A stretch of 25,431 nucleotides of DNA from a virus (taxonomy: Duplodnaviria > Caudoviricetes): positions 1-25,431 of IMG/VR virus record IMGVR_UViG_3300032329_000193. One strand, 5' to 3'. Shown here one piece after another: positions 8,281 through 25,431 of the stretch. Under the pieces are notes generated by a model that was not told where the DNA came from, ran no database searches, and saw only the letters and a program-made list of their open reading frames with translations. The stretch's first letter is position 1. Every line of letters starts with the position of its first letter. The position numbers and the translations under genes are program-made.

Positions 8281-9105
8281 ATGAGACTAGGTAATAGCCT
8301 TGGGCTATCTTCTGGTGGTAGCACCAAGTCTGTCGTGCGTACTCCTTCCGTGTTTACGTACTCGGATGCATCCACAAGCACAAGTGATGACTGGGCTCTA
8401 AGTTCGTCTAGTTATGACTCAACAAAGGATTTGACTGGGATTAGCTTCGGCACATGCGTGACCGATATTCTTACAGATGCATTTCAGAACAGAGGTTCAC
8501 TAACTTCTATTTCTTTCCAGTCTGGAGCTAGAATTAAAAGCATAGGTCAAACTGCTTTTATTGGATGCACCGAGATGACATCGTTTCCGCTGCCAAACAG
8601 CTTGGAGGTTATTCATGATAATGCGTTTGCATATTGCTCTAAACTTGCAACGGCAAACGCTCAAGCCGCCAGCCAGTTAAAGACTATTGGAATTGGTGCG
8701 TTTCAACGTACTGGATTAACCACTTTTAACATTAGGGGGAACGTCACAAAAGTGGATCACTACGCTTTCTATAACTGCACATCTCTGGCTTCAATAGGAG
8801 GAAATCCAGCATCTCTTACAACTATTGGTGACTGGGCGCTCTCGGGATGTACTTCGCTTACAACAATCAATATCCCATCGGCTGTTACAAGAGTTGGATA
8901 TAGGGCGTTTACCGATAGCCGAAACCTTGCAACAATCTATTTCTTTGGAGAGAAGCCAATCCTTAGTTACCCACCAGACGGCTCTAGCGATATTGCAGAC
9001 CTAGCTAGCGGAACCAGCGCAAACGTATCCTACTGCACTGTTAGAACAAGCTGGAGCGGAACTACTACTTTTGGTGGTAGGCCAGCATCTTCTAGAGTTT
9101 GCTAG
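8281..9105 (+). CDS. BspA-type (LRR_5) leucine-rich repeat protein, possible head fibre
   Basis: Repeats such as IKSIGQTAFIGCTEMTSFPLP, LEVIHDNAFAYCSKL, LTTIGDWALSGCTSLTTINIPSAVTRVGYRAF; N-terminal MRLGNSLGLS. Confidence 0.85.
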   Translation: MRLGNSLGLSSGGSTKSVVRTPSVFTYSDASTSTSDDWALSSSSYDSTKDLTGISFGTCVTDILTDAFQNRGSLTSISFQSGARIKSIGQTAFIGCTEMTSFPLPNSLEVIHDNAFAYCSKLATANAQAASQLKTIGIGAFQRTGLTTFNIRGNVTKVDHYAFYNCTSLASIGGNPASLTTIGDWALSGCTSLTTINIPSAVTRVGYRAFTDSRNLATIYFFGEKPILSYPPDGSSDIADLASGTSANVSYCTVRTSWSGTTTFGGRPASSRVC

Positions 9106-9112
9106 TATTTTT

Positions 9113-9358
9113 ATGAATGATGATTACGGAGATCGGAAGGCTTTGCTTGATGTGCGTGAACGTGTAATTCGCATAGAAGAAAGACAGAAGGGAGTAATTG
9201 ATATGATGCAGCTAAGCCTTAGTCGATATGCCGACCTTCATAATCGTGTCTCTTCACTTGAAATGACTAGACATAGAGTATGGGGAATGCTTGCCGTAGC
9301 TGGACTTGGTTTTACAATGCTATGGGAAGTGATTAAACAGAGGTTTTTTAAGGAGTAA
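9113..9358 (+). CDS. Coiled-coil protein with C-terminal TM helix (XhlA/holin-like), 81 aa
   Basis: ATG at 9113 is in frame with the 9071 ORF and avoids overlap with the LRR gene; VRERVIRIEERQ coiled coil then VWGMLAVAGLGFTMLWEVI. Confidence 0.65.
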   Translation: MNDDYGDRKALLDVRERVIRIEERQKGVIDMMQLSLSRYADLHNRVSSLEMTRHRVWGMLAVAGLGFTMLWEVIKQRFFKE

Positions 9359-9360
9359 TT

Positions 9361-11703
9361 ATGCCAGATATTTCCACACAACAAACATTTGCTAATGGTG
9401 ACTTGGTAACTGCCGATTCTCTTAATAACATATTGGGAGCATCATCCATTCTTCCAGAACTTGTTTCCAACAAGCCAAACAAAACAGATGTGGATGGGGC
9501 AGCAGATTTTGCTCTTATATATGACAGCGGTACTCAAACGCTTAAAAAGGCTTCTGTGACTAACATGAGAAATGCCACTGGAAGCGTTTCTTCATTAACA
9601 GTATCTGGAAAGATTACTGCGTCTGGAGGGGTTGATGGGGCGCTAACTGGAAACGTGACTGGAAACGTGACTGGCAACTTAACTGGAAATGTGACTGGCA
9701 ATGCATCCACGGCAACAGCCCTAGCCACTGGTAGAACTATTGCTCTAACTGGTGACGTTACATATACTTCTCCAGCTTTTAATGGTTCCTCAAATGTGAC
9801 CGCAGCAGCCACGCTGGCAAATACGGCTGTCACTGCTGGAACGTATGGTGGCACATCTGCTCTGACTCAAATCACTGTTGATTCAAAAGGCAGAATTACT
9901 AGCGCATCTAACGCAACTCCAGCCGACAACTTGATTACCAGTGGTATGCTTGCCACATTGAGCCCAAGTCCAGCTGGCTCATACGGAGGGGCTACAACCA
10001 TTCCAGCTATTGCTGTGAATGCGAAGGGGCAGATAACATCTGTGACTCCGACTGCTGTAAATGTTACGCAAGCTGACGGAGCTATCATAACAGCAAAGAT
10101 TGCCGATTCAGCGGTTACAAGCGTAAAGATTGCAGATGGAGCAGTCGAGACTGCTAAGCTTGCATCTGGAGCTGTAACCACAGTAAAGATTGGTGACGGA
10201 CAAGTAACTGGGACAAAGCTTGAGACAGTGACTGGGCTAACAGCAGGCACTTATGGTGGCGCATCTGTATCTCCGACAATAGCGGTTGATGCGAAAGGTC
10301 GCATTACATCAATATCAACGGAAGCAACAGTTGTAACATCCCCAAGGACAAGGGCCGTCATGTTCCCAGAAGTGCTTGGTGGTTGTTCTGGTGCTGGAAA
10401 TTATATCAACAACAAAGCAATGTTTGTTGATAGTTTTAACTTTGTCCGTAGTTCTGGATTAAATAATGTTGGAAGTCTTGGCTGGGGGCAGGATGCGCTG
10501 ACAACCGACACTCCGTATTTTATGTATTCACCAGTACCGCTAGCAACTGGTGATACAATAAAAAAGATTTACATGAATCAGTTTGGGGCATTTGTTTTAT
10601 CTACAAATGGTAAGCTTTACGGAACTGGTCAGAATGCAACTTATGGTTCTCTAGGAATTGGAGTTGCTGCTGATAGATTTGCATTTACACAAATTACAGC
10701 GCTGAGCTCATTTACTATTGTTGATTTTTCATGCGAGCAATCTACTAATGGCGCAAATTATCATTGCTTGGCAGTTACAAGCACTGGAGCTCTTTATTCT
10801 TGGGGTTACAATTTGCAGGGCCGACTAGGACTTGGTGATGCTGTAACGAGACTTACGCCAACCCTAGTAAGCGGTGGAGACATAGCTGGTAAAACAATAA
10901 AGAGATGCTTTGCCCTTAGTTGCACATCATTTGTTATTGATTCAAATAATGATTTTTATGCATGTGGATTTAATACTACTGGATGCCTAGGACTTGGAGA
11001 CTTAGTTGATAGAAATGTTTTTAGGCAAGTGCCGTCCTTAAAGGCTAATGAGATTTACTCTAATAATGGGTCTCTCACTGATGGGTATCAGATACATACT
11101 ACATATGTTTTATATAATGGTAATGTTTGGTCTACTGGGTACAACGGATTCGGAGAACTTGGAATCGGTAGTCAAGTATCCAAAAGCAGCTTCCAGCCAA
11201 TAACTGCTTTGTCTGGAGTTACTAAAATATCATCTAGCGAGGCTTACAATACTGGAAGCTCAGCTGCTGCTATTTTAACAAACGGAACTGTTAAAGTATG
11301 GGGCAGCAATAATCATGGTCAGCTCGGACTGGGATCGACCATAGATCAGCTTACTCCAGTTGCTTTGGGAGCTGGAACATATAAAGACGTTCAATTCAAC
11401 GGCGCAAGGGCTCAAGGATGCACCATATGTCTTTTACACACAGATGGAACAATGTATTCAGCTGGCTACGCACCAAGACTTATTGGAGATGGCTATACTG
11501 CTCAGAGGACTGCAATTAGTCCAGCCATGCAAACAAATGGACTTAAGTTCAAAGACTTCCGTCTTTTTGGAACAGCTGCAAATGCATTGATTCTTGCAAT
11601 AGACACGGAAGGATCGCTTTGGAGCTGGGGCTACAATGGAAATAACGTACTTGGTGTCGGTGGTGGAGCAAACGTGACGCTTCCGCAGAGAGTTATTCTC
11701 TAA
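9361..11703 (+). CDS. Tail fibre / receptor-binding protein with C-terminal RCC1/BLIP-II repeats
   Basis: AAGGAG SD; N-terminal anchor TFANGDLVTADSLN; TGNV repeats; three GxYGG...VxxKGxITS fibre repeats; DGAVxTxKIA repeats; RCC1 units such as GALYSWGYNLQGRLGLGD and GTVKVWGSNNHGQLGLG. Confidence 0.85.
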   Translation: MPDISTQQTFANGDLVTADSLNNILGASSILPELVSNKPNKTDVDGAADFALIYDSGTQTLKKASVTNMRNATGSVSSLTVSGKITASGGVDGALTGNVTGNVTGNLTGNVTGNASTATALATGRTIALTGDVTYTSPAFNGSSNVTAAATLANTAVTAGTYGGTSALTQITVDSKGRITSASNATPADNLITSGMLATLSPSPAGSYGGATTIPAIAVNAKGQITSVTPTAVNVTQADGAIITAKIADSAVTSVKIADGAVETAKLASGAVTTVKIGDGQVTGTKLETVTGLTAGTYGGASVSPTIAVDAKGRITSISTEATVVTSPRTRAVMFPEVLGGCSGAGNYINNKAMFVDSFNFVRSSGLNNVGSLGWGQDALTTDTPYFMYSPVPLATGDTIKKIYMNQFGAFVLSTNGKLYGTGQNATYGSLGIGVAADRFAFTQITALSSFTIVDFSCEQSTNGANYHCLAVTSTGALYSWGYNLQGRLGLGDAVTRLTPTLVSGGDIAGKTIKRCFALSCTSFVIDSNNDFYACGFNTTGCLGLGDLVDRNVFRQVPSLKANEIYSNNGSLTDGYQIHTTYVLYNGNVWSTGYNGFGELGIGSQVSKSSFQPITALSGVTKISSSEAYNTGSSAAAILTNGTVKVWGSNNHGQLGLGSTIDQLTPVALGAGTYKDVQFNGARAQGCTICLLHTDGTMYSAGYAPRLIGDGYTAQRTAISPAMQTNGLKFKDFRLFGTAANALILAIDTEGSLWSWGYNGNNVLGVGGGANVTLPQRVIL
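9646..9705 (+). repeat. Five 12-bp tandem repeats encoding (TGNV)n
   Basis: ACTGGAAACGTG x2, ACTGGCAACTTA, ACTGGAAATGTG, ACTGGCAATGCA. Confidence 0.9.
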
Positions 11704-14092: not shown

Positions 14093-14508
14093 TGACAACT
14101 AGGGAAATAGCTGACTTTGTATGGCTAAGATGGCCACCATTTCGTGTCGATAACATCATCGATATCATTGAGTGGTATGGCGCAAACAAACTTCTTGGAG
14201 TTGTCACAGATAAGGGTGCCATCCAAGCCGTTGCAATGATTCGTATAGTTAACTCAAAAGAAGAAGGTCTCGAGCATTACAAGCATGACCCAGACGGAAA
14301 TATGATATGGGTGGACTTGATTGCATCGGATACAAAAATTTCCACGGCAGCCTTGGTCGCAATGCTGTTTGAAAACTGGGGCAAGAAACAATATGTTGGA
14401 TTTCAGAAAAGCTTGAGGAGCACGTTTACACACGTATTCCCTAGTCGCTTGCTGGATAAAGTGTTACAAAGAAGCGTAACAGCTGGACTTGTAACTCATA
14501 GGAGCTAA
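14092..14508 (+). CDS. Hypothetical protein, possibly degenerate GNAT fold (T7 gp13-like slot)
   Basis: TGATG stop/start overlap with the nozzle gene; alpha/beta pattern with MIWVDLIAS strand; lies between nozzle and internal proteins. Confidence 0.6.
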   Translation: MTTREIADFVWLRWPPFRVDNIIDIIEWYGANKLLGVVTDKGAIQAVAMIRIVNSKEEGLEHYKHDPDGNMIWVDLIASDTKISTAALVAMLFENWGKKQYVGFQKSLRSTFTHVFPSRLLDKVLQRSVTAGLVTHRS

Positions 14509-14511
14509 ATT

Positions 14512-16017
14512 ATGTCAGTGCAATTAACTAGTCATGGAGTCAATTCACCTCTTTGGAGGGCTGCATCAAGCGTGCTAAACGGAGGCGGTTCCCCGCCCTC
14601 TGCTCCACCTCCCCCTCCCCCGCCAGATTACGCAGCCTCAAGTAGGGCTGGAATTCTTACTGACGTTGACTCTCTTGCTACACGAAAGTCTATTGAGAAT
14701 GCTGCTATTTATGGGGGGTCTGCTAAAAATTACGGAGTTATAGAGCAGGACGGAAAGTACTATCAGAAATACGATGAAGATGGTAAGGCTCTAAAAAAGC
14801 CGAAGGAAATAACAAAGGAGGAAGCCTTCTCTACGTTCACCGCAGAGAACTCAACCATTGGCGCATCAGAAAAGCTCGCAGACTTCCAGAGAGCGGGGAT
14901 GGATAAGAACGCTGCGTTTGGCCTAGAGCTAGCCGATAAGTATGGCGCTAAATACGTAGACCAAGCCAAAGAATTAATGGAGAGGCTTGACCCAGAGGGC
15001 ACTGCTAATCGCAAGGAGCTCGCTGATGCGGTAAACAACAAGCTCGAGACAGTCAAGGGAGATGGGCCTGCACTTGAGGAAGTCAAGGCTGCTGCTGCCA
15101 TGGAGAAGGTTGGCAACGCAAAAGACCAAGAGAAGGTGGATGACATTGCTGCTCTGAAGCGTGGAGACGTTAATGACGGAGGCGGTAATACGCAGGCCGT
15201 CAGATCAAGACTTGAGCAGGATATTCTCGATAACCTCAAGAACGGAGAGAACTTAAGCCCAAACCAGATTAAGCAAATCGAGGAGCAGACTCGTTCTGCA
15301 CAAGTTGCCAGAGGCAATGCCACTGGTAACGCTGCTACGGCAGCCGAGATTGCATCTAAATACGACCTCGGAACTAGGATGGGACAGCAAAGAAGGGGTG
15401 AGGCCATGGGCTTGCTTACTTCTGGCCAAAGCACATACGACACAGCCAGCAAGCTTAGGCAGGAGGACAATGCCCTTACTCAGCAAGACTTGCAGAACAA
15501 GCTTGTTACCACATCTCAGCGCAATAGTTCTGCTCAGATTGATTACTCCAATTTGCTTAACTCCGTTTCGCAGAGAAATACGGCCACTCAGCAAGATTAC
15601 GCAAACGCAATAACACAAAACCAAGCAAATAACCAAATTAAGCAGCAGGGCTTCGCTAATTCCCTCACAGCCATTGGTCAGCGTAACTCTGCCGAGCAGC
15701 AGAGGGTGGCAAATATGTCGTCTTATGCTGGATTGGCTCCAGTTGGGGCTATTGCATCACAGACTCAAGGTGCTCAAGCGTCACCAGTATGGACTGGCCA
15801 GCCAGCTCAAATGATGAATTTGCTTAATGTGAACGGAAACGCTGGAAACGATGCAGCTAAGTTTGCTTTAGGAGTTTTTGATACACAAAGCAGGAACTAT
15901 GCCAGCTTGTTGAACTACAACGCATCCACATACGCAACTAATCAACAATATAACAGCCCAATGTCTTGGGTGAATACGATTGGTGGTGCTGTGGGTAACG
16001 TAGCAAAGATGTGGTAA
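14512..16017 (+). CDS. Internal virion / DNA-ejection (pilot-like) protein
   Basis: GGAG SD; GGGSPPSAPPPPPPPDY near the N-terminus; ARGNATG motif; Gln/Asn/Ala-rich helical repeats; Gly-rich amphipathic C-terminus. Confidence 0.7.
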   Translation: MSVQLTSHGVNSPLWRAASSVLNGGGSPPSAPPPPPPPDYAASSRAGILTDVDSLATRKSIENAAIYGGSAKNYGVIEQDGKYYQKYDEDGKALKKPKEITKEEAFSTFTAENSTIGASEKLADFQRAGMDKNAAFGLELADKYGAKYVDQAKELMERLDPEGTANRKELADAVNNKLETVKGDGPALEEVKAAAAMEKVGNAKDQEKVDDIAALKRGDVNDGGGNTQAVRSRLEQDILDNLKNGENLSPNQIKQIEEQTRSAQVARGNATGNAATAAEIASKYDLGTRMGQQRRGEAMGLLTSGQSTYDTASKLRQEDNALTQQDLQNKLVTTSQRNSSAQIDYSNLLNSVSQRNTATQQDYANAITQNQANNQIKQQGFANSLTAIGQRNSAEQQRVANMSSYAGLAPVGAIASQTQGAQASPVWTGQPAQMMNLLNVNGNAGNDAAKFALGVFDTQSRNYASLLNYNASTYATNQQYNSPMSWVNTIGGAVGNVAKMW

Positions 16018-17083: not shown

Positions 17084-20000
17084 GTGGCTCAGTTAGTCAA
17101 AACTCCTTGGGGGGAGCTGGAATTCCCCGATGACATGTCTCAAGAGCAGATGGAATCTGCTATTAAGAACACTAAAGAATTCCAAGCTCAATCGCCTCAA
17201 GCAGAAGCTGCTCAGCCAGCGCCTCAGCTGACTCAAGAGGATCAAGCCCCTCAACAGACAGTAGTTCAAGAGCCTCCACCTCCGACTAAGAGCTTGCTTA
17301 GCGATGAAGAGAGGAATGCCATAACAAGCGCTGGGCAAGAGGTTCCGATGCTGGAAGCCGAGAAGGGCTCCACTGGATTGCTTGGACTTGGAAAGTATTT
17401 TGCACGAGAAATCCCAGCTGGACTCATGGATATGGGGTCGGCAGTCCAAAAAGCTTTTGGATATAATGATCTAGATAATTTGAGGGTGCAGCAGAAAGCC
17501 CTCGAGTTCATTGATGACAGAAAGAAGAAGGGTCTAACCACAACTGACGAGGACATTGATAATTTCTATGCTGGGTACAAAAACACTCAGCAGGAAACAG
17601 CAGAGAGCATTCGTGCTGCCCTACCAGTCGATGAGTCCGTAAAGAAGTCCACTGCTGGACAAGTTACAAAGTTTGTTGCCGACACTGGCACAATGGTTGG
17701 AGCTGGCATCGCAACTGGGGGTGCCTCGGCAATCCCCACGAATGTTGGATTCCTAACGAAGTGGGCGTATGAGGATGCAAAAAGCAAGGGAGCAACAGAG
17801 CAAGCAGCTAGACAAGCTGCCTATGCATACGCTCCGCTTGCGCTCGTTCCTCAGACAGCCCTTACCGAATCGCTTGCTGCTAGATTTATTAAGCCACTAG
17901 CACCCTACGTTGGTAAGGGGCTCACACTTGGGCAGGCAAAGAATGAAATACTAAAGTCCGTTGGAAGAGGTGCGTTGCAAGGTGGGACAGTGATGGGCAT
18001 TCAACAGACTGAGCTAAATGCCCTCATGCGAATGATGGACATTGATCCAGATAGACCACTGACAGAGGGAGTTGCTAACTCAATAGGCATAGGTGCGCTA
18101 GGTAGTGGTCTAATTTCTGGAACTGGTACGGCATTTAACGCTGGAGCGACTATGGCTAGTCCAGAGAACAAAGCCTATAACCTAGCCAACCGAGTCACTG
18201 AGCAAGCCAAGCAAGCCAACCTTAATACAGACGCTCTCCGCAGGGCAGCTGGAATTCCAGATGGATCGACTGTCGAAAAGATGAGCACCAAGTATGCTCA
18301 AAACGAAGCTGGTCAGAATTCCACTGAAATCACCTACATCACGCCAGAGGGAAGGCGCATCACGCTGAAGGTTACTGGAGATAGCACTCCTACAGTCACC
18401 GCCAATCCTCTTCTTCTCGAAGCTCCGAAGCCACAGACCAACACTGGGCAGGGTGAACCAGTGCCAGTCGGCACTCAGACAACTCAAAGAATCAATCGTG
18501 AGACACGTCAGATTGAGTCAACCGAAAGCCTAGTGAACGGCCCAGTTTTATTTACGCCCCCTCCCCTAAACGCTGGGGATAATGTGCGTCTTGACCTAAA
18601 GAGCCCAGTCGGTGGCAAGACCACGTTTATTGAGGGAGAGGTGCTGCCAGACAAGTCGGGAGTGAGGATCAGCTATATCCCAGACGAGCTTGCTGGAGAT
18701 ATTGCACAGCTTGAAGGCACCACCACAGCCACTGGCCAGCCGTCCAAGATGCCCAAGATTGGTGACGTGGTACCCATGAGCGTGGCCGAAAGGAACTTTA
18801 GGCTTGCTGGGTATAGGGCCGATTCAGCTTGGTACAGTAACATGGCTGAGCCTCGCAAAAACTTCCCGCAAACGCAGTCCACTCAGACAGATCAACCAGC
18901 AGAACGTCCAGTTACTCAAGCTCAGTCTAACGCTATAACTCTTGAGGCTGCCAAGCAGAGTAAGCTTCCTCAGCAAGCTCCAAAGGGACAGCCTTCTGCC
19001 CCCTACTTCCCTACCGCTCCAGACAGATCGCAAGCTGGCACGCCCCCAGTCGAGAAGAAGAAGGAACCAGCTTTCCCACGCAGGAAACCAGAGATTGGCA
19101 GGAAGAAAGCTGAGAAGGAGGGCAAGCCTTACTTCCCTTCTGCCCCAGATCGCATGCAATACTCCGAGCGTGGCGTACCCACGCAAGAGCAGAAGTCTTA
19201 CGCCTCAAGGATGGGGCAAGCACTGCTCACCGCTCTTCGCAGGATTGCACCCAAAGGCGCAGCCGAGTTGGAAATTTTCCTTGGCCCAAAGCCAGAGGGA
19301 TATTCTGACAATGCAGTGGCAGCCTACGATCCTCGCAGGGCGATGATATGGCTCTCAGATCGGATCGCCACATTCAAACAGCAAGTTGGTGAATTCACCC
19401 ACGAAGCTGGACACGTTTTCTGGGACACCATCCCCGATAACGTAAAGAGGGCTTTCGCCGAGCTATACGCAGCCGAGATGCGTACAAAGACTGGCCCTCT
19501 ATTCAATTCTAACGGCAACATAAAAGACGGAATCTCCCCACGTATTGCCTCTGGCCAACAGCTCGAAACATCAGTGGCTCCTTGGGACACAGTGGGTCTG
19601 CGTGAGTGGTTTGCTGAGCGCATCATGGTTGAGAATGCGGATTGGGCCATGGGTAAAGCCACGACTGAAGGAATTGTCGGGCGCACTGCTGGAGTATTTA
19701 GAGATGTTTTGAGGAGAATTAGCGGAGCACTCGGACAAGGCGATGCAATGAACAACGCCTTCAAGGACTGGGCAAATCTTGGCCCTAGATATGGAATCAA
19801 GCCAGAGCTTGGCGAGCCAGCGAGCCCGAATGTGGCCACACGCCTAGTTCCTCGTGGATCAGTTCAAGAATCAACAAGACAAAACAAGAGCGAGGAATAC
19901 GAAAGAATAGAAGAGGCAGCTGATAGCCAAAGAGGAAGGCCAGAGTCGGTGATGATGGACGTAACGATGAAGTTAAAAGAGGAAACGGCATCATCTCCTG

Positions 20001-23000
20001 TATTGATAGACTTGCTCGAGCATATTGGAGACCTCTCCAATAGAGCACAAAAAGAGAATGCTATTGGTAATGTGGATGAGAAGTTATATAAGGTTGAGAA
20101 ATACAAGAGTAATGGTTGGGGAACATTAAGGCAGGCAATCGAACAAGGATATAGGGAGAATGCTGAATACAGAGTTCTGAAGTCAGTACCAGAGCTAAAC
20201 GAGTTGCGGAATAAAGTTGGGCAGCCAGATGGGCCAAGGGGATTGTTCGAAGTTTACGAGAGAGTCAGAAATGAGCATGGCGACAAGATCAACGAGGAGA
20301 TTGAAAGATCAAAATTAGTCGCAAGGCAGGAGCTGCTGAAATACGTTGAAGCTCACGAGAAGTATAATAAGCCAGTAACAAAGCTAGGGATGCTCGGGAA
20401 GGAGGCTGCCATCGCACTTGGTAAGCAAGATTTTCCAAGACTAGAAGCTGTTGTTTCTGAAATGAGGAAGTGGGTTGACGAATATAATGTGTCAACCCAA
20501 CAGAAAAGAAGCGAGATGTTCACTGAATCTGCACAAGAATCCACTCGTGGGAAGGAAGAGGTAAAGGCCGAGCTTCCGAGGGGAGTTATTAATGATGCTG
20601 TAAAAATCGCCAAGGGGGAGCTTGAATCGGAAGACAGAAGGTTCCACGAAAACTTCTTTACTGATGTTTGGCCAAGAATAATAAAGGACTTGGGGCAGAA
20701 AACGCTTAAGCCAACTGCCTCTAATATAGAAAAGCTAACTGGCCAAGCCGTATCTGACGTGCTGTCCTTTGTCTCTAGGAATCCAGATTTCGCAAACTAT
20801 TACTCGAAAGATATTGTTCAAGTTGAGAAGTATCTCGAAAGGGCATTCCCAGAGGTGCGTGAAAACCCAGAGCTCAAGACGGCATTCAAAATGTTTGCTG
20901 CTCTCACGTCTCCAGACACATCCCTTGAATCCAACATGGGCGAAGCTACAGACGTGTTCTCTCTTTGGCTGAAAGATAGGAACCTTGACTCAATAAAGAT
21001 GGGCGAAAACGAGGGTGGCAAGCTAGTAATTACGGAAAGTCCATTCAGCCTACTTGGTTCTTCAAACGCAAATAAAGCAAGAGCTGTAAAGAATCTGGCG
21101 AAAATGATTAATGAGAATGGGGCAGCAAAGACAGCCGAGATTATGGCCAGCCCTAGGACGCAAAGGGAGCTAAACAAGCTTAGGGGAGAGCTTGGATATA
21201 AGTCTGGGATCAAGGGGCCAGCCACAAAACAAGTTGTGATGGAGGCGACTGGCCAAGACGTTCAGATACCATCAGCATACATATTCGGCCCAAAGGTGGG
21301 GTCGTACCTAATGAATTGGCTTGGTGATTCTAGGTTCACAACAATAGATATTTGGGAATCAAGATTTTCTAGGTCGTATTTCCCAGATTTTTTCAATAAA
21401 GTTGTCGGGGTAGACCCAAAGACCAAGGAGCCAATTTACAATACTGGACTATCGGAGGGTGAGGAGCGTGCGGTATTCGCCAACTTTGCAACAATCTTTA
21501 ATAAGAACTTTGAAAAAAGAACTGGATTAAAACTCCCTGCTAGCGCCCTTCAAGCGCTTAGGTGGTTTTACATAATTGACGCAACTGGCAACGCTGGTTA
21601 TAAAGGAGCACAATCAAATGAAGCAAGTTCGGAATACACAAGAAGAGCCCTCGTTAAACGAGACAGACTTAATGAGTCTGATAAGGAAGATTGGAGACGA
21701 GTCGCTAACGGAAGCGAAAAACCAATTCTTCTCCAACAATTCACAGGTGAAATCGCTTATCGAGAAGGGTCTGGCGAAGGACGAGCAGGAAGCCTCTCAG
21801 ATGCTCAAAGACTTTATGATGTAAGAGAACTGACTCCAGAGGAGTTCGTTCAGACGGCAAGCAAGAACAAGTCAGAAGCCAAATTTGGAACCTCGGTAGA
21901 CGTACTTAGCCCAGAGCAATACAAAGACTACGACCTAGTCCAAGCCTCGGTGGGTGGAGAGACTGCCACAGTGTCGGTATCAAAGAGCGGAGAGATTGGT
22001 TCTGTTACCAAATCCCAGAATGCGCCATCCACCCTTATTCGCACAGCGATGGACGCTGCCCTTCATTATCGTGGCGGGAAAGATATATGGCTTAATGGCT
22101 TCAACACAATTCTCCCAGAGCTGTATTCGGATTACGGATTTAGACCAGTAGCCAAGCTTAAGTTTAATGATGAGTATAGGCCAGAAGGATGGGACTATAA
22201 GGCTTACTCTAAGTACAACAATGGAAGGCCAGACGTTGTTTTCATGCGATATACTGGAGACTTCTCTGGGGACTATAAGGCCGAGCTTGAGAATGCTCCA
22301 TACAAGGAGTCCTATGAATCGGCATCAGAGTTGGCCAGCGGTAAGCCTCAAATGTCCGAGCGTGGTCAGCAAGAGTTCCGCAATAACTTCGATGACGATG
22401 CCTATACCAAGACCCTTGGTATGCATCCAGCCGAAGTGCACGAGATGGCTGGAGCAGTAGCCAACCTAGTGAATAGCGCTTATGAAGGGCGTGTAGACCC
22501 AGCTGCGTTACGAGTCAGCACTGGCAAGCTACGAAGGCTTCTGGTGGATAAGTTTGCCGACTTTAAGGATTTCAAGAAGCTTATCGAGAAGCGTGGTTCC
22601 CTGCTCCCAGAAAGCTCTGACTTCCACACGCAGGAACAGAACATGCATGGGATCATTGGTGCAAAGCTTGAAGCTTTATACGATGCTCACGAGACAATCA
22701 TCGGCACGCTAAAGGACTTGGGCCTCAACCAGACCATCGATGCTGTGGTTGGTGGGCAGAACGTGAACATGGGAATGATCGATCTGTACATGTATGCTCG
22801 TCATGCACCCGAGCGCAACGCTCGGATATTTAAGCTTAGCGAGGGGAAGAGCACGTTTGGCAGCGGAATGACAGACTCAGAGGCTGCCACGATCCTAGCC
22901 AAGCTATCCCCTTATGAAGCCAAGCTCTCGGCTGTGGCAAGAATGGTATATGACCTAAATAGGACAAAGCTCCGAATGATGGAGAATGCTGGCCTTATCT

Positions 23001-25210
23001 CTTCCGAAGCTCGGCAGGCAATCGAAACAAGATACCCGAACTACTGCCCCCTTATCGGGAAGGCTGGAGCCACAGAGGAAGAACAGTTCTCGCAGGACAC
23101 TGGGATTGGGGCTGGCATGACCATGATTGGAAGAGACATCAAGCCAGCTAAAGGACGATACACTGCGTCAGCAAACATATTGGCCAACGCATTCCACCTA
23201 CAGCAGAGGGCTGTGGTGCGTTCCGAGCGTAATATCACACTCAAGGCTTTGGCCAAGCTTGCTGGAGAGTTCACCGATAACGGACTTGTTGAGAAAGTGG
23301 TTGAGCTTAGGGCAAACGAAAACACGCTCACCCCAGAGATCGTTGTCTATAAAGAGAACGGCCAAACCAAGTATCTACGCCTGCTAGATGATGACCTCAT
23401 TAAATCATTTAAGCAGTCTAGGGGTCAGCTGGATCAGATATTCAGTTTCTTAGGGAGGGGCACAAGACTGATGGCATCAATGGCCACCACTTATAACCCT
23501 GCATTCGCAGTTCCCAACCTTGTCCGTGACTTTCAGACAGCCATTTTCAATATGAGCAGTACCGAGATCGCTGGACTGGAGAAAGATTTTGCACTCAAGA
23601 TGCCATCTGCAATGAAGGCTGTGTGGCACTCCGAAAGCCAAGCCTTTAGGAGCGGTAAGTGGAACAAGGTGGTGAGTCCTCAAGTGGCCGAGGCCATGAA
23701 GTACTATAAGGAATTTAGGGAAAACGGCGGTCAAATGATATTCATGGGACTGCGTGATGCTGAGTACTATCAGAAGAAAATGGATAGGCTCATGCCGAGA
23801 AATAGGAATGCAATCGAAGTGGCTGGCGAGGTTGGACAGAAGTTTATTCTTGGGCCATACAAAGAATTCCTTGAGCACATAAACTCAAGCCTAGAAAACG
23901 CCACCCGCTTGAGCGCATACATGACGGCTAGGGAGCGTGGCTTATCCCCCCAGAAGGCAGCCAACCTTTCACGCAACCTAACTGTGAACTTCACCCAAAG
24001 GGGGCAGCTCACAGCCCTTAATCAAATCTACATGTTCTTCAATGCCTCTCTCGCTGGCAGTGCTCGCATGGTTGAGACCATTTCATCTAGCCCTCGTGGA
24101 AGAGCTTTTGCGGGATCGATTGTGCTTGCTGGTTTCTTCCAGAGGCTTGCCTCTCGCTACCTATCTGATGAGGACGAGAATGGGATCAAGGAAGTGGATA
24201 AGGTGCCAGCCTACCAGCTCTCAACCAACATGGTGCAAGCCATTCCAAACGTGCCCAACTGGATTAAGATGCCCCTCGCCTACGGAGCGAATGTGTTCTG
24301 GTACTTGGGCACACAGATGGCAGACATGCTCCCGAGGGAATATGGGGGCATGGGCAAGAGTCCATTGAAGGCCACTGGCGAGTTCGTGAAGGCTGCTATG
24401 AATGCCTTCAATCCTATCGGAGGTGGAGCGGAGATAGTAAACTCCATAACCCCATCAGTTGCTCAGCCATTCGTTGACATCTCGATTAACAAGAACTTCG
24501 CTGGCCAGCCAATCTACCCAACGGATAATCCCTTTGACGCTTCTCCCGATCCATATGCGTTTAGGACTTGGAGTAATCCTAACCCAGCAATCGCAGGGAT
24601 AGTGCAATCGATAGCAAGGTTTAGCGGTGGCAATGAGATTCGCCCCAGCCTAGCCGAGGATGCGCTGAGCACATTTGGCATGGGTGCCTTCGCAAGCCCA
24701 GAGTCGGTTGAGTACTTGTTCAAGAGCGTATTCAGTGGCCCCTATTCAATCTATAACGACTTGTCTAAAACATTCCACGGCCTTTCCACCAGCCAAGGCA
24801 TCGACCCAAATAACCTCCCCATTGTTCGTAGGTTTATTGGCGCTCCCAGCGATAGGTCTGACAGCGTCTTGTTTAAGGAAGCTTGGCAGAATATCTCCAC
24901 AGCTAGGGATGAGCTGAAGCTCTATATGAAGAACGGAGATAGGAAGAATGCTGATCGAGTGAGAGCTGAGTATCCTGCCGAGCTCGCTTGCTATGACCAG
25001 TTCAGCCGAATCAACTACCAGCTCAAAAGCCTCCGCACCCAAGCCAAGTCCTACAAGAGCAAGGGCGACACCGAGGGAGAGCTTCGTGTGCAGAAGATGA
25101 TCCGAGAAACACAGACGCAAGCGCTTGGCCAGTACAAGAAGGCTGTTGATCGCATGGGTTCTAAGGCTGGAGATAAAGCATCAGACCAAGTAAAGAGCCT
25201 TTTCTATTGA
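17084..25210 (+). CDS. Large polyvalent internal virion protein, 2708 aa (zincin peptidase, HhH-GPD-like, GNAT-like and LPD38-like domains)
   Basis: GTG start; EFPDDMS N-terminal motif; Gly-rich hydrophobic segments; HEAGH...REWFAE; GPK-x17-D; LYSDYGF; C-terminal NLVRD, ENATRL, TVNFTQRG, MFFNAS, NKNFAGQPI and SPESVEY motifs typical of LPD38-containing proteins. Confidence 0.85.
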   Translation: MAQLVKTPWGELEFPDDMSQEQMESAIKNTKEFQAQSPQAEAAQPAPQLTQEDQAPQQTVVQEPPPPTKSLLSDEERNAITSAGQEVPMLEAEKGSTGLLGLGKYFAREIPAGLMDMGSAVQKAFGYNDLDNLRVQQKALEFIDDRKKKGLTTTDEDIDNFYAGYKNTQQETAESIRAALPVDESVKKSTAGQVTKFVADTGTMVGAGIATGGASAIPTNVGFLTKWAYEDAKSKGATEQAARQAAYAYAPLALVPQTALTESLAARFIKPLAPYVGKGLTLGQAKNEILKSVGRGALQGGTVMGIQQTELNALMRMMDIDPDRPLTEGVANSIGIGALGSGLISGTGTAFNAGATMASPENKAYNLANRVTEQAKQANLNTDALRRAAGIPDGSTVEKMSTKYAQNEAGQNSTEITYITPEGRRITLKVTGDSTPTVTANPLLLEAPKPQTNTGQGEPVPVGTQTTQRINRETRQIESTESLVNGPVLFTPPPLNAGDNVRLDLKSPVGGKTTFIEGEVLPDKSGVRISYIPDELAGDIAQLEGTTTATGQPSKMPKIGDVVPMSVAERNFRLAGYRADSAWYSNMAEPRKNFPQTQSTQTDQPAERPVTQAQSNAITLEAAKQSKLPQQAPKGQPSAPYFPTAPDRSQAGTPPVEKKKEPAFPRRKPEIGRKKAEKEGKPYFPSAPDRMQYSERGVPTQEQKSYASRMGQALLTALRRIAPKGAAELEIFLGPKPEGYSDNAVAAYDPRRAMIWLSDRIATFKQQVGEFTHEAGHVFWDTIPDNVKRAFAELYAAEMRTKTGPLFNSNGNIKDGISPRIASGQQLETSVAPWDTVGLREWFAERIMVENADWAMGKATTEGIVGRTAGVFRDVLRRISGALGQGDAMNNAFKDWANLGPRYGIKPELGEPASPNVATRLVPRGSVQESTRQNKSEEYERIEEAADSQRGRPESVMMDVTMKLKEETASSPVLIDLLEHIGDLSNRAQKENAIGNVDEKLYKVEKYKSNGWGTLRQAIEQGYRENAEYRVLKSVPELNELRNKVGQPDGPRGLFEVYERVRNEHGDKINEEIERSKLVARQELLKYVEAHEKYNKPVTKLGMLGKEAAIALGKQDFPRLEAVVSEMRKWVDEYNVSTQQKRSEMFTESAQESTRGKEEVKAELPRGVINDAVKIAKGELESEDRRFHENFFTDVWPRIIKDLGQKTLKPTASNIEKLTGQAVSDVLSFVSRNPDFANYYSKDIVQVEKYLERAFPEVRENPELKTAFKMFAALTSPDTSLESNMGEATDVFSLWLKDRNLDSIKMGENEGGKLVITESPFSLLGSSNANKARAVKNLAKMINENGAAKTAEIMASPRTQRELNKLRGELGYKSGIKGPATKQVVMEATGQDVQIPSAYIFGPKVGSYLMNWLGDSRFTTIDIWESRFSRSYFPDFFNKVVGVDPKTKEPIYNTGLSEGEERAVFANFATIFNKNFEKRTGLKLPASALQALRWFYIIDATGNAGYKGAQSNEASSEYTRRALVKRDRLNESDKEDWRRVANGSEKPILLQQFTGEIAYREGSGEGRAGSLSDAQRLYDVRELTPEEFVQTASKNKSEAKFGTSVDVLSPEQYKDYDLVQASVGGETATVSVSKSGEIGSVTKSQNAPSTLIRTAMDAALHYRGGKDIWLNGFNTILPELYSDYGFRPVAKLKFNDEYRPEGWDYKAYSKYNNGRPDVVFMRYTGDFSGDYKAELENAPYKESYESASELASGKPQMSERGQQEFRNNFDDDAYTKTLGMHPAEVHEMAGAVANLVNSAYEGRVDPAALRVSTGKLRRLLVDKFADFKDFKKLIEKRGSLLPESSDFHTQEQNMHGIIGAKLEALYDAHETIIGTLKDLGLNQTIDAVVGGQNVNMGMIDLYMYARHAPERNARIFKLSEGKSTFGSGMTDSEAATILAKLSPYEAKLSAVARMVYDLNRTKLRMMENAGLISSEARQAIETRYPNYCPLIGKAGATEEEQFSQDTGIGAGMTMIGRDIKPAKGRYTASANILANAFHLQQRAVVRSERNITLKALAKLAGEFTDNGLVEKVVELRANENTLTPEIVVYKENGQTKYLRLLDDDLIKSFKQSRGQLDQIFSFLGRGTRLMASMATTYNPAFAVPNLVRDFQTAIFNMSSTEIAGLEKDFALKMPSAMKAVWHSESQAFRSGKWNKVVSPQVAEAMKYYKEFRENGGQMIFMGLRDAEYYQKKMDRLMPRNRNAIEVAGEVGQKFILGPYKEFLEHINSSLENATRLSAYMTARERGLSPQKAANLSRNLTVNFTQRGQLTALNQIYMFFNASLAGSARMVETISSSPRGRAFAGSIVLAGFFQRLASRYLSDEDENGIKEVDKVPAYQLSTNMVQAIPNVPNWIKMPLAYGANVFWYLGTQMADMLPREYGGMGKSPLKATGEFVKAAMNAFNPIGGGAEIVNSITPSVAQPFVDISINKNFAGQPIYPTDNPFDASPDPYAFRTWSNPNPAIAGIVQSIARFSGGNEIRPSLAEDALSTFGMGAFASPESVEYLFKSVFSGPYSIYNDLSKTFHGLSTSQGIDPNNLPIVRRFIGAPSDRSDSVLFKEAWQNISTARDELKLYMKNGDRKNADRVRAEYPAELACYDQFSRINYQLKSLRTQAKSYKSKGDTEGELRVQKMIRETQTQALGQYKKAVDRMGSKAGDKASDQVKSLFY

Positions 25211-25242
25211 CCTTTGTGCGTAACAACGCATCCTAGTTACTT

Positions 25243-25431
25243 ATGGGATGGCTCGACAATACCATCGGAAGAGGCATCACGAAGAAGAAATCGCCTGCTA
25301 AAAAGCCAGTTGCCTCAGCCCCACAACCCAAGCCTGCGCCAATAGTTTTAGCCCCAGTTGCGGTTGACGCAGTGGAGCTACTCACCCAAGAAGGCATCGA
25401 TGCCATCATTGATTTTGAGGTGGGCGGTGGA
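25243..25431 (+). CDS. Probable muramidase-type endolysin, 5' part (truncated by window end; not in the ORF track)
   Basis: Own translation MGWLDNTIGRGITKKKSPAKKPVASAPQPKPAPIVLAPVAVDAVELLTQEGIDAIIDFEVGGG; TQEGIDAIIDFE matches the helix plus catalytic Glu of lysozyme-like (GH24/pesticin-type) enzymes. Confidence 0.6.
   Translation, partial: MGWLDNTIGRGITKKKSPAKKPVASAPQPKPAPIVLAPVAVDAVELLTQEGIDAIIDFEVGGG

Follow-up and report, generated by a model that had tools for sequence, protein, structure and literature searches.

A predicted OGG-like helix-hairpin-helix glycosylase domain within a large polyvalent protein of a podovirus-type phage

Glycosylases that act on 8-oxoguanine (8-oxoG) recognize their base through a small set of residues described in PMC3397491: a Gln or Asp that bonds to N1 of 8-oxoG and a Phe or Trp four residues further on that stacks against it (Gln315/Phe319 in hOGG1, 278/282 in CacOgg, Asp194/Trp198 in MjaOgg2 and Asp218/Trp222 in AGOG), as well as a His or Trp two residues after the catalytic Asp (268/270 in hOGG1, with Trp243 in CacOgg and His148 in MjaOgg2 as counterparts). 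QNG1, whose fold is that of helix-hairpin-helix (HhH) glycosylases, carries the equivalent residues D298 and W302 and a K199/D231 pair, acts on queuosine 5'-monophosphate (Q-5'MP), has insertions that block DNA and requires its C-terminal carboxylate (PMC9881137). Dag1, which degrades G-modified phage DNA, requires K118, D184 and W188, with D132 contributing (bioRxiv 10.1101/2025.10.29.685425). The sequence analyzed here, referred to as the window, is the whole of the 25,431-nucleotide virus record IMGVR_UViG_3300032329_000193 (Caudoviricetes; 25.4 kb, estimated to be 66% complete), in which the last gene of the virion module encodes a 2,708-amino-acid (aa) protein with a predicted OGG-like domain in its interior. 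Our preferred reading, to which we give a probability of roughly 40%, is that this domain would be a co-injected glycosylase that removes an altered guanine from the entering phage genome.

The domain and its key residues are listed below; helix positions follow the numbering of the domain model, and residue counts were taken from the best 150 matches of the pattern-free profile search described further on, where these cover the position.

20585–21676, + strand: predicted OGG-like HhH-fold N-glycosylase domain (aa 1168–1531), a divergent DUF7178 clade, placed by model, structure alignment and profile comparison
20801–20812, + strand: Y1240-x-x-D1243, conserved residues of an N-terminal helix (Y in 140/140, D or E in 137/140 covered matches)
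20909–20935, + strand: S1276-P-x-T...N1284, loop after helix 96–107 (S in 145/145, N in 141/145 covered matches)
21293–21295, + strand: K1404 (AAG), predicted catalytic or positioning Lys at the start of the second HhH helix (model 236–245; K237), in 150/150
21347–21364, + strand: D1422-x-W1424-x-x-R1427, predicted catalytic Asp (GAT at 21347), Trp, and Arg at Asp+5
21551–21565, + strand: Q1490-x3-W1494 on helix 319–336 (Q in 148/148, W in 148/148 covered matches)

The AlphaFold2 model of the domain has a predicted local distance difference test (pLDDT) score of 92.8 and a predicted TM-score (pTM) of 0.89. When it was compared with VIA-align to 48,161 representative PDB chains, the top 23 chains were all HhH glycosylases or their relatives (Z 6.3–10.7), while the first unrelated chain appeared at Z 5.2; the part that matches solved structures comprises model residues 48–340 (nt 20726–21604). 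The best match was Thermotoga Ogg2 (3n0u; Z 10.7, root mean square deviation (rmsd) 4.4, 202 of its 209 residues aligned), followed by QNG1 (10.4 and 9.2), MagIII (8.9), NTHL1 (8.7), AADT gp46/PUGT (8.1), Nth (7.9), ROS1 (7.2), AGOG (6.9–7.3) and OGG1 (6.4–6.8); AADT we take to belong to the same fold. For a helical protein, such scores are middling, and it is the clean sorting of the chains that is the evidence. When the domain was compared with viral models, it best matched stretches of large proteins, most of them polyvalent (13 at E ≤ 0.001). Judged by its model, the domain almost certainly has the HhH fold.

The predicted two-lobe, all-helical architecture and the placement of Lys and Asp along the helices are those of the broad HhH-fold glycosylase superfamily, AGOG and QNG1 included. 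The features of the canonical HhH-GPD family are missing, however: there is no L-P-G-V-G-x-K consensus, no Gly/Pro-rich stretch and no Pro before the catalytic Asp, and none of the 50 members of the clade matches HhH-GPD in Pfam or NCBIfam. A preliminary description of the window had proposed an HhH-GPD domain, a claim that finds support as to the glycosylase fold and none as to the canonical family. Neither Pfam, PHROGs nor NCBIfam gives a name to the window's domain, and sequence searches of the PDB with the domain and with two profiles yielded nothing relevant, matches to designed tetratricopeptide repeats being noise.

The motifs singled out in that description lie where it had placed them, all in frame within one uninterrupted open reading frame (ORF): AALTSPDTSLESN begins at nt 20897 (aa 1272), IFGPKVG...TIDIW at nt 21281, with the Lys codon at 21293 and the Asp codon at 21347, and ALQALRW at nt 21545. 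K1404 aligns with the G-x-K of Ogg1-type proteins, and D1422 (model D255), 18 residues downstream, stands at the start of helix 256–263. W1424 is of the CacOgg Trp243/hOGG1 His270 type, and R1427 follows the Asp by five residues, as in Nth (DTHIFR) and MutY-like proteins. The S1276...N1284 loop, whose SP...N pattern is also present in the stand-alone forms considered below, would stand where HhH glycosylases have their DNA-wedge loop. As a candidate for reading the N7 edge of the base we name D1243, although it falls on Gln31 of Pa-AGOG only if the alignment that begins at model 48 and residue 3 of 1xqp is gapless. Two insertions, a hairpin (138–151) and a set of helices (193–222), enlarge the domain. 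The only cysteines of the entire protein are C1988 and C2636, and since the domain itself and 48 of the 50 aligned domains are free of Cys, there is no Fe-S cluster, as had been noted from the outset.

Conservation of the active site was followed in two ways. Alignment A3 has 50 rows, namely the query and 49 loci (non-redundant at 85%, from 79 scored out of 80 fetched), and the fetching of these loci relied on patterns with K or D in them. All 50 rows, and 37/37 homologues from a word search, retain K1404 and D1422; where the pattern left the residue free, K is retained in 10/10 rows and D in 21/21. Only 1 of the 30 Lys and 2 of the 18 Asp of the query fall in invariant columns. The second approach was a pattern-free profile search of 1.84 billion representatives, which gave 3,189 clusters (at 50% identity) at E ≤ 0.001, 2,087 at 1e-10 and 498 at 1e-30. 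K1404, D1422 and W1424 are present in each of the best 150 matches, and R1427 in 147 of them. The Lys/Asp pair is thus not only intact, as had been claimed, but conserved far beyond chance. Position 1278, equivalent to the Gln of the Nth SAQAT motif, is occupied by Q, N, S, G or A and is not conserved.

As judged from motifs and alignment end-points, Q1490-x3-W1494 and D1422-x-W1424 correspond to the Gln/Asp-x3-Phe/Trp and Asp+2 His/Trp residues of the 8-oxoguanine glycosylases, and every class of base-recognition residue described for these enzymes (PMC3397491) and for QNG1 has an invariant counterpart in the sequence pattern. The end-point shared by several OGG1 alignments is model residue 331, corresponding to chain residue 323; if they are gapless, model residues 323 and 327 fall on OGG1 positions 315 and 319. 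Ogg1-type proteins of Verrucomicrobiota carry the patterns G-x-K...D-x-W-I-x-R/K and Q-Q-x-L-F, and the best local profile match to 14 such proteins lies on the K...D-x-W...R segment, with a weak score (P 0.026); comparison of A3 by hhalign with single Nth or single Ogg1-type proteins gave no signal. Because the two motifs repeat the pattern of OGG, QNG1 and Dag1, the pocket probably takes a guanine-type base. The N7-H sensors of OGG1 (Gly42) and Ogg2 (the C-terminal Lys) cannot be present as such, since the domain has no A-domain and is internal, with no free C-terminus; in AGOG the corresponding sensor is Gln31.

The closer analogues are the 8-oxoguanine glycosylases and QNG1, and not endonuclease III (Nth), which had been named as the model. 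The E. coli features invoked then, LLSAQATD and a Lys and Asp 18 residues apart, are indeed seen in the K-12 record sequence, and the likeness holds for spacing and fold; it does not extend to the hallmarks of Nth, because the domain has no cysteines for a 4Fe-4S cluster, carries D-x-W in place of DTH in 150/150 matches, does not keep the SAQAT Gln and finds no profile match.

The profile comparison relates the domain to a known family. Alignment A3 matches stand-alone DUF7178 proteins in hhalign with a probability of 96.6% (E 6.5e-10), and PF23802 (DUF7178) is found in 30/50 clade members at E ≤ 0.1; the window's own domain has no PF23802 match, falling below the Pfam gathering cut-off, which relatives in L061, L074 and L080 pass. 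The ESM Atlas returns DUF7178 at 0.96–0.97, with a low recognition value. In terms of sequence, the window's domain represents a divergent DUF7178-like clade. One divergent member led to stand-alone mycobacteriophage proteins of 191–203 aa that are annotated as 'glycosylase' or 'N-glycosylase/DNA lyase', so that the glycosylase label for this family already exists among annotators. Two of the stand-alone proteins, MK4 gp76 and Kumao gp115, are full DUF7178 members; their genes are the third and the second from the genome end, respectively, a location that we take to be the first early operon. In the literature searched, which did not cover subscription journals and supplements, no description of the module was found and no paper contained 'DUF7178'. 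The main text of PMC5512222, on polyvalent proteins, does not contain 'glycosylase' and contains 'HhH' once, in a different context, while its supplements could list the domain unnamed. The fold, the DUF and the protein class are all known; it is their combination as a module of a virion polyprotein that we did not find described.

Carriers of the domain almost always encode it within a very large protein. It lies in an ORF of at least 1,200 aa in 77/79 scored viral loci, the remaining two shorter ORFs running off the locus, and in an ORF of at least 1,000 aa in 131 of the best 150 representatives; 8 and 7 proteins of a length similar to that of the domain (182–704 aa) were found, on records of 1.5–4.6 kb where stated, and are probably fragments. 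A locus search with the single domain sequence and a tblastn search of the domain against GenBank phages gave no match. Two cultured carriers, the podovirus OANV1 (PMC9239159) and Limnohabitans phage DC33 (gp45), keep K, D and Q-x3-W.

Locus L082, 14485–23445: OANV1 gp16, carrier protein of a cultured podovirus

All four cellular-genome loci matched by the domain profile (L093–L096) are from Verrucomicrobiota, which suggests that phages of the close clade have their hosts in this phylum. The pocket is unchanged across the hosts Verrucomicrobiota (4/4 of these matches), Octadecabacter and Limnohabitans, and such constancy across hosts of several phyla suggests a ubiquitous substrate. PF23802 was found in none of 151 Verrucomicrobiota genomes, but the control was silent too, and the search is hence uninformative.

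The carrier protein has the following parts besides the glycosylase domain.

17084–25210, + strand: large polyvalent protein of 2,708 aa, last gene of the virion module, a single unbroken ORF
19400–19414, + strand: HEAGH zincin-type metallopeptidase motif (aa 773–777), seen in the sequence and with no Pfam match
24191–24826, + strand: LPD38 domain (aa 2370–2581)

The LPD38 match has an E value of 2.2e-20, and PHROG 14770, 616 and 10691 match aa ~1807–2669. A large multidomain protein with LPD38 and an HExxH motif, encoded among virion genes, corresponds to the phage large polyvalent proteins in the sense of PMC5512222, where a metallopeptidase (MPTase) role is described for such a motif; the HEAGH region may accordingly be read, from its sequence, as a processing module of the polyprotein. 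The LPD38 protein of phi24B (gp47) was detected in virions by proteomics and proposed as an ejection protein in a preprint, and another LPD38 protein is essential in PTXU04. By analogy, the window protein is likely an internal virion (ejection) protein. The preliminary description had called it a virion ejection protein outright; its place as an LPD38 polyvalent protein of the virion module stands, and its packaging is deduced from homologues only.

The nature of the carriers' own DNA bears on what the domain could act upon. QueC was found in 0/47 carrier records, including 0/18 near-complete ones, and FolE and ThyA-like proteins in 0/18 near-complete carriers each, the controls being positive. 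The words CGCG, CCGG, CCWGG, GGWCC and CGWCG are wholly absent both from the window and from G001, a complete 42.3-kb relative (loci L085–L087) that is collinear with the window and encodes an integrase; the expected counts are 38 (window) and 77 (G001) for CGCG, and 36 and 76 for CCGG. The absence of several restriction-type sites implies that the hosts carry many restriction systems, and this avoidance together with the lack of QueC, FolE and ThyA-like genes indicates that the carrier DNA is probably unmodified, so that any altered base found there would be damage or host-made. An earlier suggestion that the enzyme modifies bases of the phage's own DNA is disfavoured on the same grounds. Nor does the avoidance reflect the glycosylase sparing its own target, because both alleles of the domain described below share it and none of the listed most-avoided words is absent from all 23 carrier sequence sets; a self-avoided motif common to all carriers was accordingly not seen among these words. 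As a separate observation, CGATCG and CTGCAG are also absent from G001, and GCCGC and ACCGT are nearly absent. An enzyme directed at normal guanine would harm the phage itself, and integrases, present in 7/18 near-complete carriers, argue against wholesale destruction of host DNA and weaken the attack on host DNA that had been offered as one option. Genes resembling dGTP diphosphohydrolases occur in 1/18 carriers, below the cut-off, and are not a general partner. Ogg2 was found in 0/201 Verrucomicrobiota genomes.

Comparison of close relatives indicates that the domain is mobile. Among nine of them we distinguish two domain alleles that are 55–58% identical, while the rest of the proteins that bear them is 88–100% identical in the peptidase region and 85–100% identical in the C-terminal part, and the alleles agree at 19 of 20 key positions. 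Since the alleles diverge inside near-identical proteins and retain these positions, the domain is swapped as a cassette with a constant pocket. Companion modules, identified by scanning 17 proteins, include ART-PolyVal, a kinase plus GNAT, a helicase, RadC, ddrB-ParB and LPD22, LPD23 and LPD38. ART-PolyVal is found in 19/69 non-redundant carriers, often no more than 50 residues from the domain, and is not present in the window protein; an obligate ART–glycosylase pair was rejected on this count.

Under our preferred reading, the domain would be packaged in the virion and injected along with the genome, and perhaps released by the HExxH peptidase. An altered guanine, most likely the oxidized 8-oxoG or formamidopyrimidine guanine (FapyG) and otherwise a host-made guanine lesion, would be flipped into the Q1490/W1494 pocket, where it would be read and stacked; D1422 and K1404 would then break the N-glycosidic bond, with or without AP (apurinic/apyrimidinic)-lyase activity. 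The target would be the phage's own entering DNA, which host base-excision repair would restore before transcription or replication, and the integrases of 7 of the 18 near-complete carriers are consistent with such self-repair. The parts of this scheme differ in strength: going by the model, the domain is very probably an active N-glycosylase, and DNA rather than a free nucleotide is likely to be its substrate.

Several points weigh against this reading. As to the fold, VIA-align warns that Z values below about 13 may be generic for helical folds, and Foldseek gave no PDB match at E ≤ 0.001, its highest probabilities going to OGG1, QNG1 and AADT. As to the pocket, the K/D geometry and the residue equivalences are drawn from alignment end-points and motifs, and D1243 is not conserved at the same position in two stand-alone forms. 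The hairpin has no canonical Gly-x-Gly, its first Gly position (1400) being I, A, M or V, and this degenerate hairpin is accompanied by a tie for the best match with QNG1, a hydrolase of free nucleotides. The hosts have HhH glycosylases of their own in 4/4 genomes, and Ogg1-type proteins in 13/61. Finally, the adjoining ART-PolyVal, kinase, RadC and ddrB-ParB modules are conflict effectors, and the swapping of alleles that are 55–58% identical is less usual for housekeeping repair than for conflict.

The tie with QNG1 leads to a reading that we regard as unlikely, in which the domain would be a QNG1-like N-glycosidase that hydrolyses a guanine-type nucleotide, for instance ppGpp or a cyclic G-containing oligonucleotide acting as alarmone or immune signal, or removes queuine from tRNA, and would thereby blunt defence or translation at entry. 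QNG1 acts on Q-5'MP through a matching K/D pair and D-x3-W and carries DNA-blocking insertions (PMC9881137), the domain likewise has insertions, at 138–151 and 193–222, and its hairpin is degenerate, and a catalyst could exhaust a signal even if only a handful of molecules were injected. The SP-x-T...N loop and the Arg five residues after the Asp (147/150) nevertheless match DNA glycosylases, Ogg2 is aligned over 202 of its 209 residues, and the net charge is positive in 46/69 domains (median +5), although this last point is weak evidence. The conflict-type context and the allele swapping would fit instead a weapon comparable to Dag1, likewise unlikely, that cuts 7-deazaguanine, or guanine modified in another way, out of the DNA of a co-infecting phage, or strips a modified-guanine self-mark from the host. 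Dag1 needs its K118, D184 and W188 to degrade G-modified phage DNA, and carriers with neither QueC nor FolE would be immune. QueC is uncommon in phages, and its absence is weak evidence; in addition, a rare target poorly explains 3,189 clusters with a constant pocket, and a virion-borne enzyme would meet a competitor only in co-infection.

The missing restriction-type sites, CGCG and CCGG among them, could also be understood if the domain attacked host DNA through a base other than guanine, as a ROS1/DEMETER-type 5-methylcytosine glycosylase or a sequence-specific restriction glycosylase whose sites the phage does not have, and ROS1 is among the structural matches (Z 7.2). We hold this to be improbable: the pocket pattern is of the guanine type, host restriction explains an avoidance that the alleles share and in which no listed word is absent from all 23 sets, and integrases again speak against it. 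The proximity of ART-PolyVal to the domain in 19/69 carriers brings to mind the removal of ADP-ribosylated guanine made by DarT-type toxins of the host, or by the carrier protein's own ART-PolyVal module in a mark-and-excise pair, but 50/69 carriers, the window protein included, have no ART match. Known guanine ADP-ribosylation is on N2, the edge read by the Gln315-type residue, and we see little prospect for this explanation. Least probable of all would be a transferase of the AADT kind, decorating the DNA of its own phage once this has entered, or a scaffold that binds DNA and is catalytically idle. The former draws on the AADT gp46/PUGT match (Z 8.1) and is opposed by the lack of a ThyA-like hydroxymethylase in 18 near-complete carriers (the 5-hydroxymethyluracil kinase was not searched), by the absence of any AADT Pfam match among 50 members and by a restriction-site avoidance that implies unprotected DNA; the invariant K/D pair argues against the latter.

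A broader formulation, which we offer tentatively and with less than even confidence, is that a base-excision enzyme directed at guanine serves as an exchangeable counter-defence module, injected by aquatic podoviruses in their thousands, which might strip defence-made marks from the entering genome, destroy the DNA of G-modified rivals or hydrolyse a guanine-based immune signal. DUF7178 would then possibly be one family with two delivery routes, one virion-borne and the other immediate-early.

Two further modules of the 2,708-aa protein flank the glycosylase domain, and a partial gene follows it.

19871–20533, + strand: inserted module of ~220 aa (aa 930–1150)
21797–22369, + strand: alpha/beta domain 3' of the glycosylase (aa 1572–1762), AlphaFold2 pLDDT 85.4
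25240–25431, + strand: start of a gene cut by the record end, whose counterpart in G001 has a weak pesticin/lysozyme-like match (E 5e-4)

Among 117 carriers, the ~220-aa insert occurs only in the window and in P0007 (85% identical), where it is paired with the other glycosylase allele; most close relatives, G001 among them, do not have it, and it has no match in Pfam or the ESM Atlas. The alpha/beta domain carries the motif FxTxLPxxYxxxGF...W...G.PDVV, lies directly downstream of the glycosylase in 15/69 non-redundant carriers, and is 80–82% identical between the two allele groups, having been partly exchanged along with the glycosylase domain. It has no Pfam match; its order of strands and helices may resemble that of a GNAT acetyltransferase. 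Matches of this domain to TAL repeats in the PDB were rejected as an artefact of summed weak repeat matches.

The + strand of the window reads as a podovirus-type virion module, in which the scaffold, portal and nozzle labels rest partly on gene order:

+ strand: small terminase, large terminase, 612-aa portal-like protein, probable scaffold and major capsid protein
+ strand, after the capsid gene: RCC1-repeat fibre, SU10-type adaptor, 553-aa nozzle-like protein, ORFs of 139, 501 and 349 aa, and the 2,708-aa ORF

In G001 the next gene is lysozyme-like. The tail-fibre regions of the two (window 8281–11703 versus L085 13699–18809 in G001) are wholly different, with a BspA-type leucine-rich repeat protein and the RCC1-repeat fibre in the window and other proteins in G001. 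Extra accessory genes are present in G001 (L086 8706–11150, + strand; 14264–14812 and 17991–18263, – strand), namely an AAA_5 ATPase with a DUF2201 metallopeptidase/von Willebrand factor A partner, a 2-oxoglutarate-Fe(II) oxygenase and a weak dATP/dGTP diphosphohydrolase-like ORF.

Bacteria are now known to use glycosylases as weapons against phages, and our searches found no report of a phage that packages one for injection. Knowing what the domain acts on would reveal either repair of the phage genome upon entry or a response to an unrecognized guanine-based defence, would give DUF7178 a function, and might yield a new reagent for modified guanine. Compactness and a confident model make the domain directly testable, and OANV1 and DC33 as cultured carriers, together with the stand-alone forms in Mycobacterium smegmatis phages, are at hand.

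Set beside the systems described so far, the window's domain shares with MK4 gp76 and Kumao gp115 the motifs WY, SP...N, PK...N-x-LG...T-x-D-x-W-x-x-R and QA-x-x-W, but it is larger (~360 versus ~195 aa) owing to large insertions and is embedded in a polyprotein of the virion module, unlike the free genes at genome ends. With E. coli endonuclease III it has in common the fold (Z 7.9, rmsd 3.8, 176 residues aligned), the K–D spacing of 18 and the Arg at Asp+5, whereas it differs in the missing Fe-S cluster, in D-x-W instead of D-T-H, in the lack of a conserved wedge-loop Gln and in the absence of a profile match. QNG1/DUF2419 resembles it in fold (Z 10.4, rmsd 3.9, 222 residues aligned), in the K/D pair, in a D-x3-W motif and in insertions near the HhH motif, but spaces its Lys and Asp by 32 residues rather than 18 and uses a C-terminal carboxylate that an internal domain would not have unless cut out. 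Dag1 and Dag2, likened here through published residues only, have the HhH fold, the Lys, the Asp and a D-x3-W that acts on modified guanine, as well as a mobile, conflict-type distribution; they are host-encoded defence proteins, in contrast to a domain encoded by a phage, which in the counter-defence formulation might be the phage-side mirror of the Dag/Brig glycosylases. From the 8-oxoguanine glycosylases the domain is set apart by an identity of 7–14%, by the lack of the OGG1 A-domain with Gly42 and of a free Ogg2-type C-terminal Lys, by its viral and likely virion-borne nature and by its degenerate hairpin, and AGOG likewise has a non-canonical hairpin (PMC3397491). With the same enzymes it shares the two-lobe helical fold, the Lys/Asp pair, the Trp at Asp+2 as in CacOgg, the Q/D-x3-W/F motif and the absence of an Fe-S cluster.

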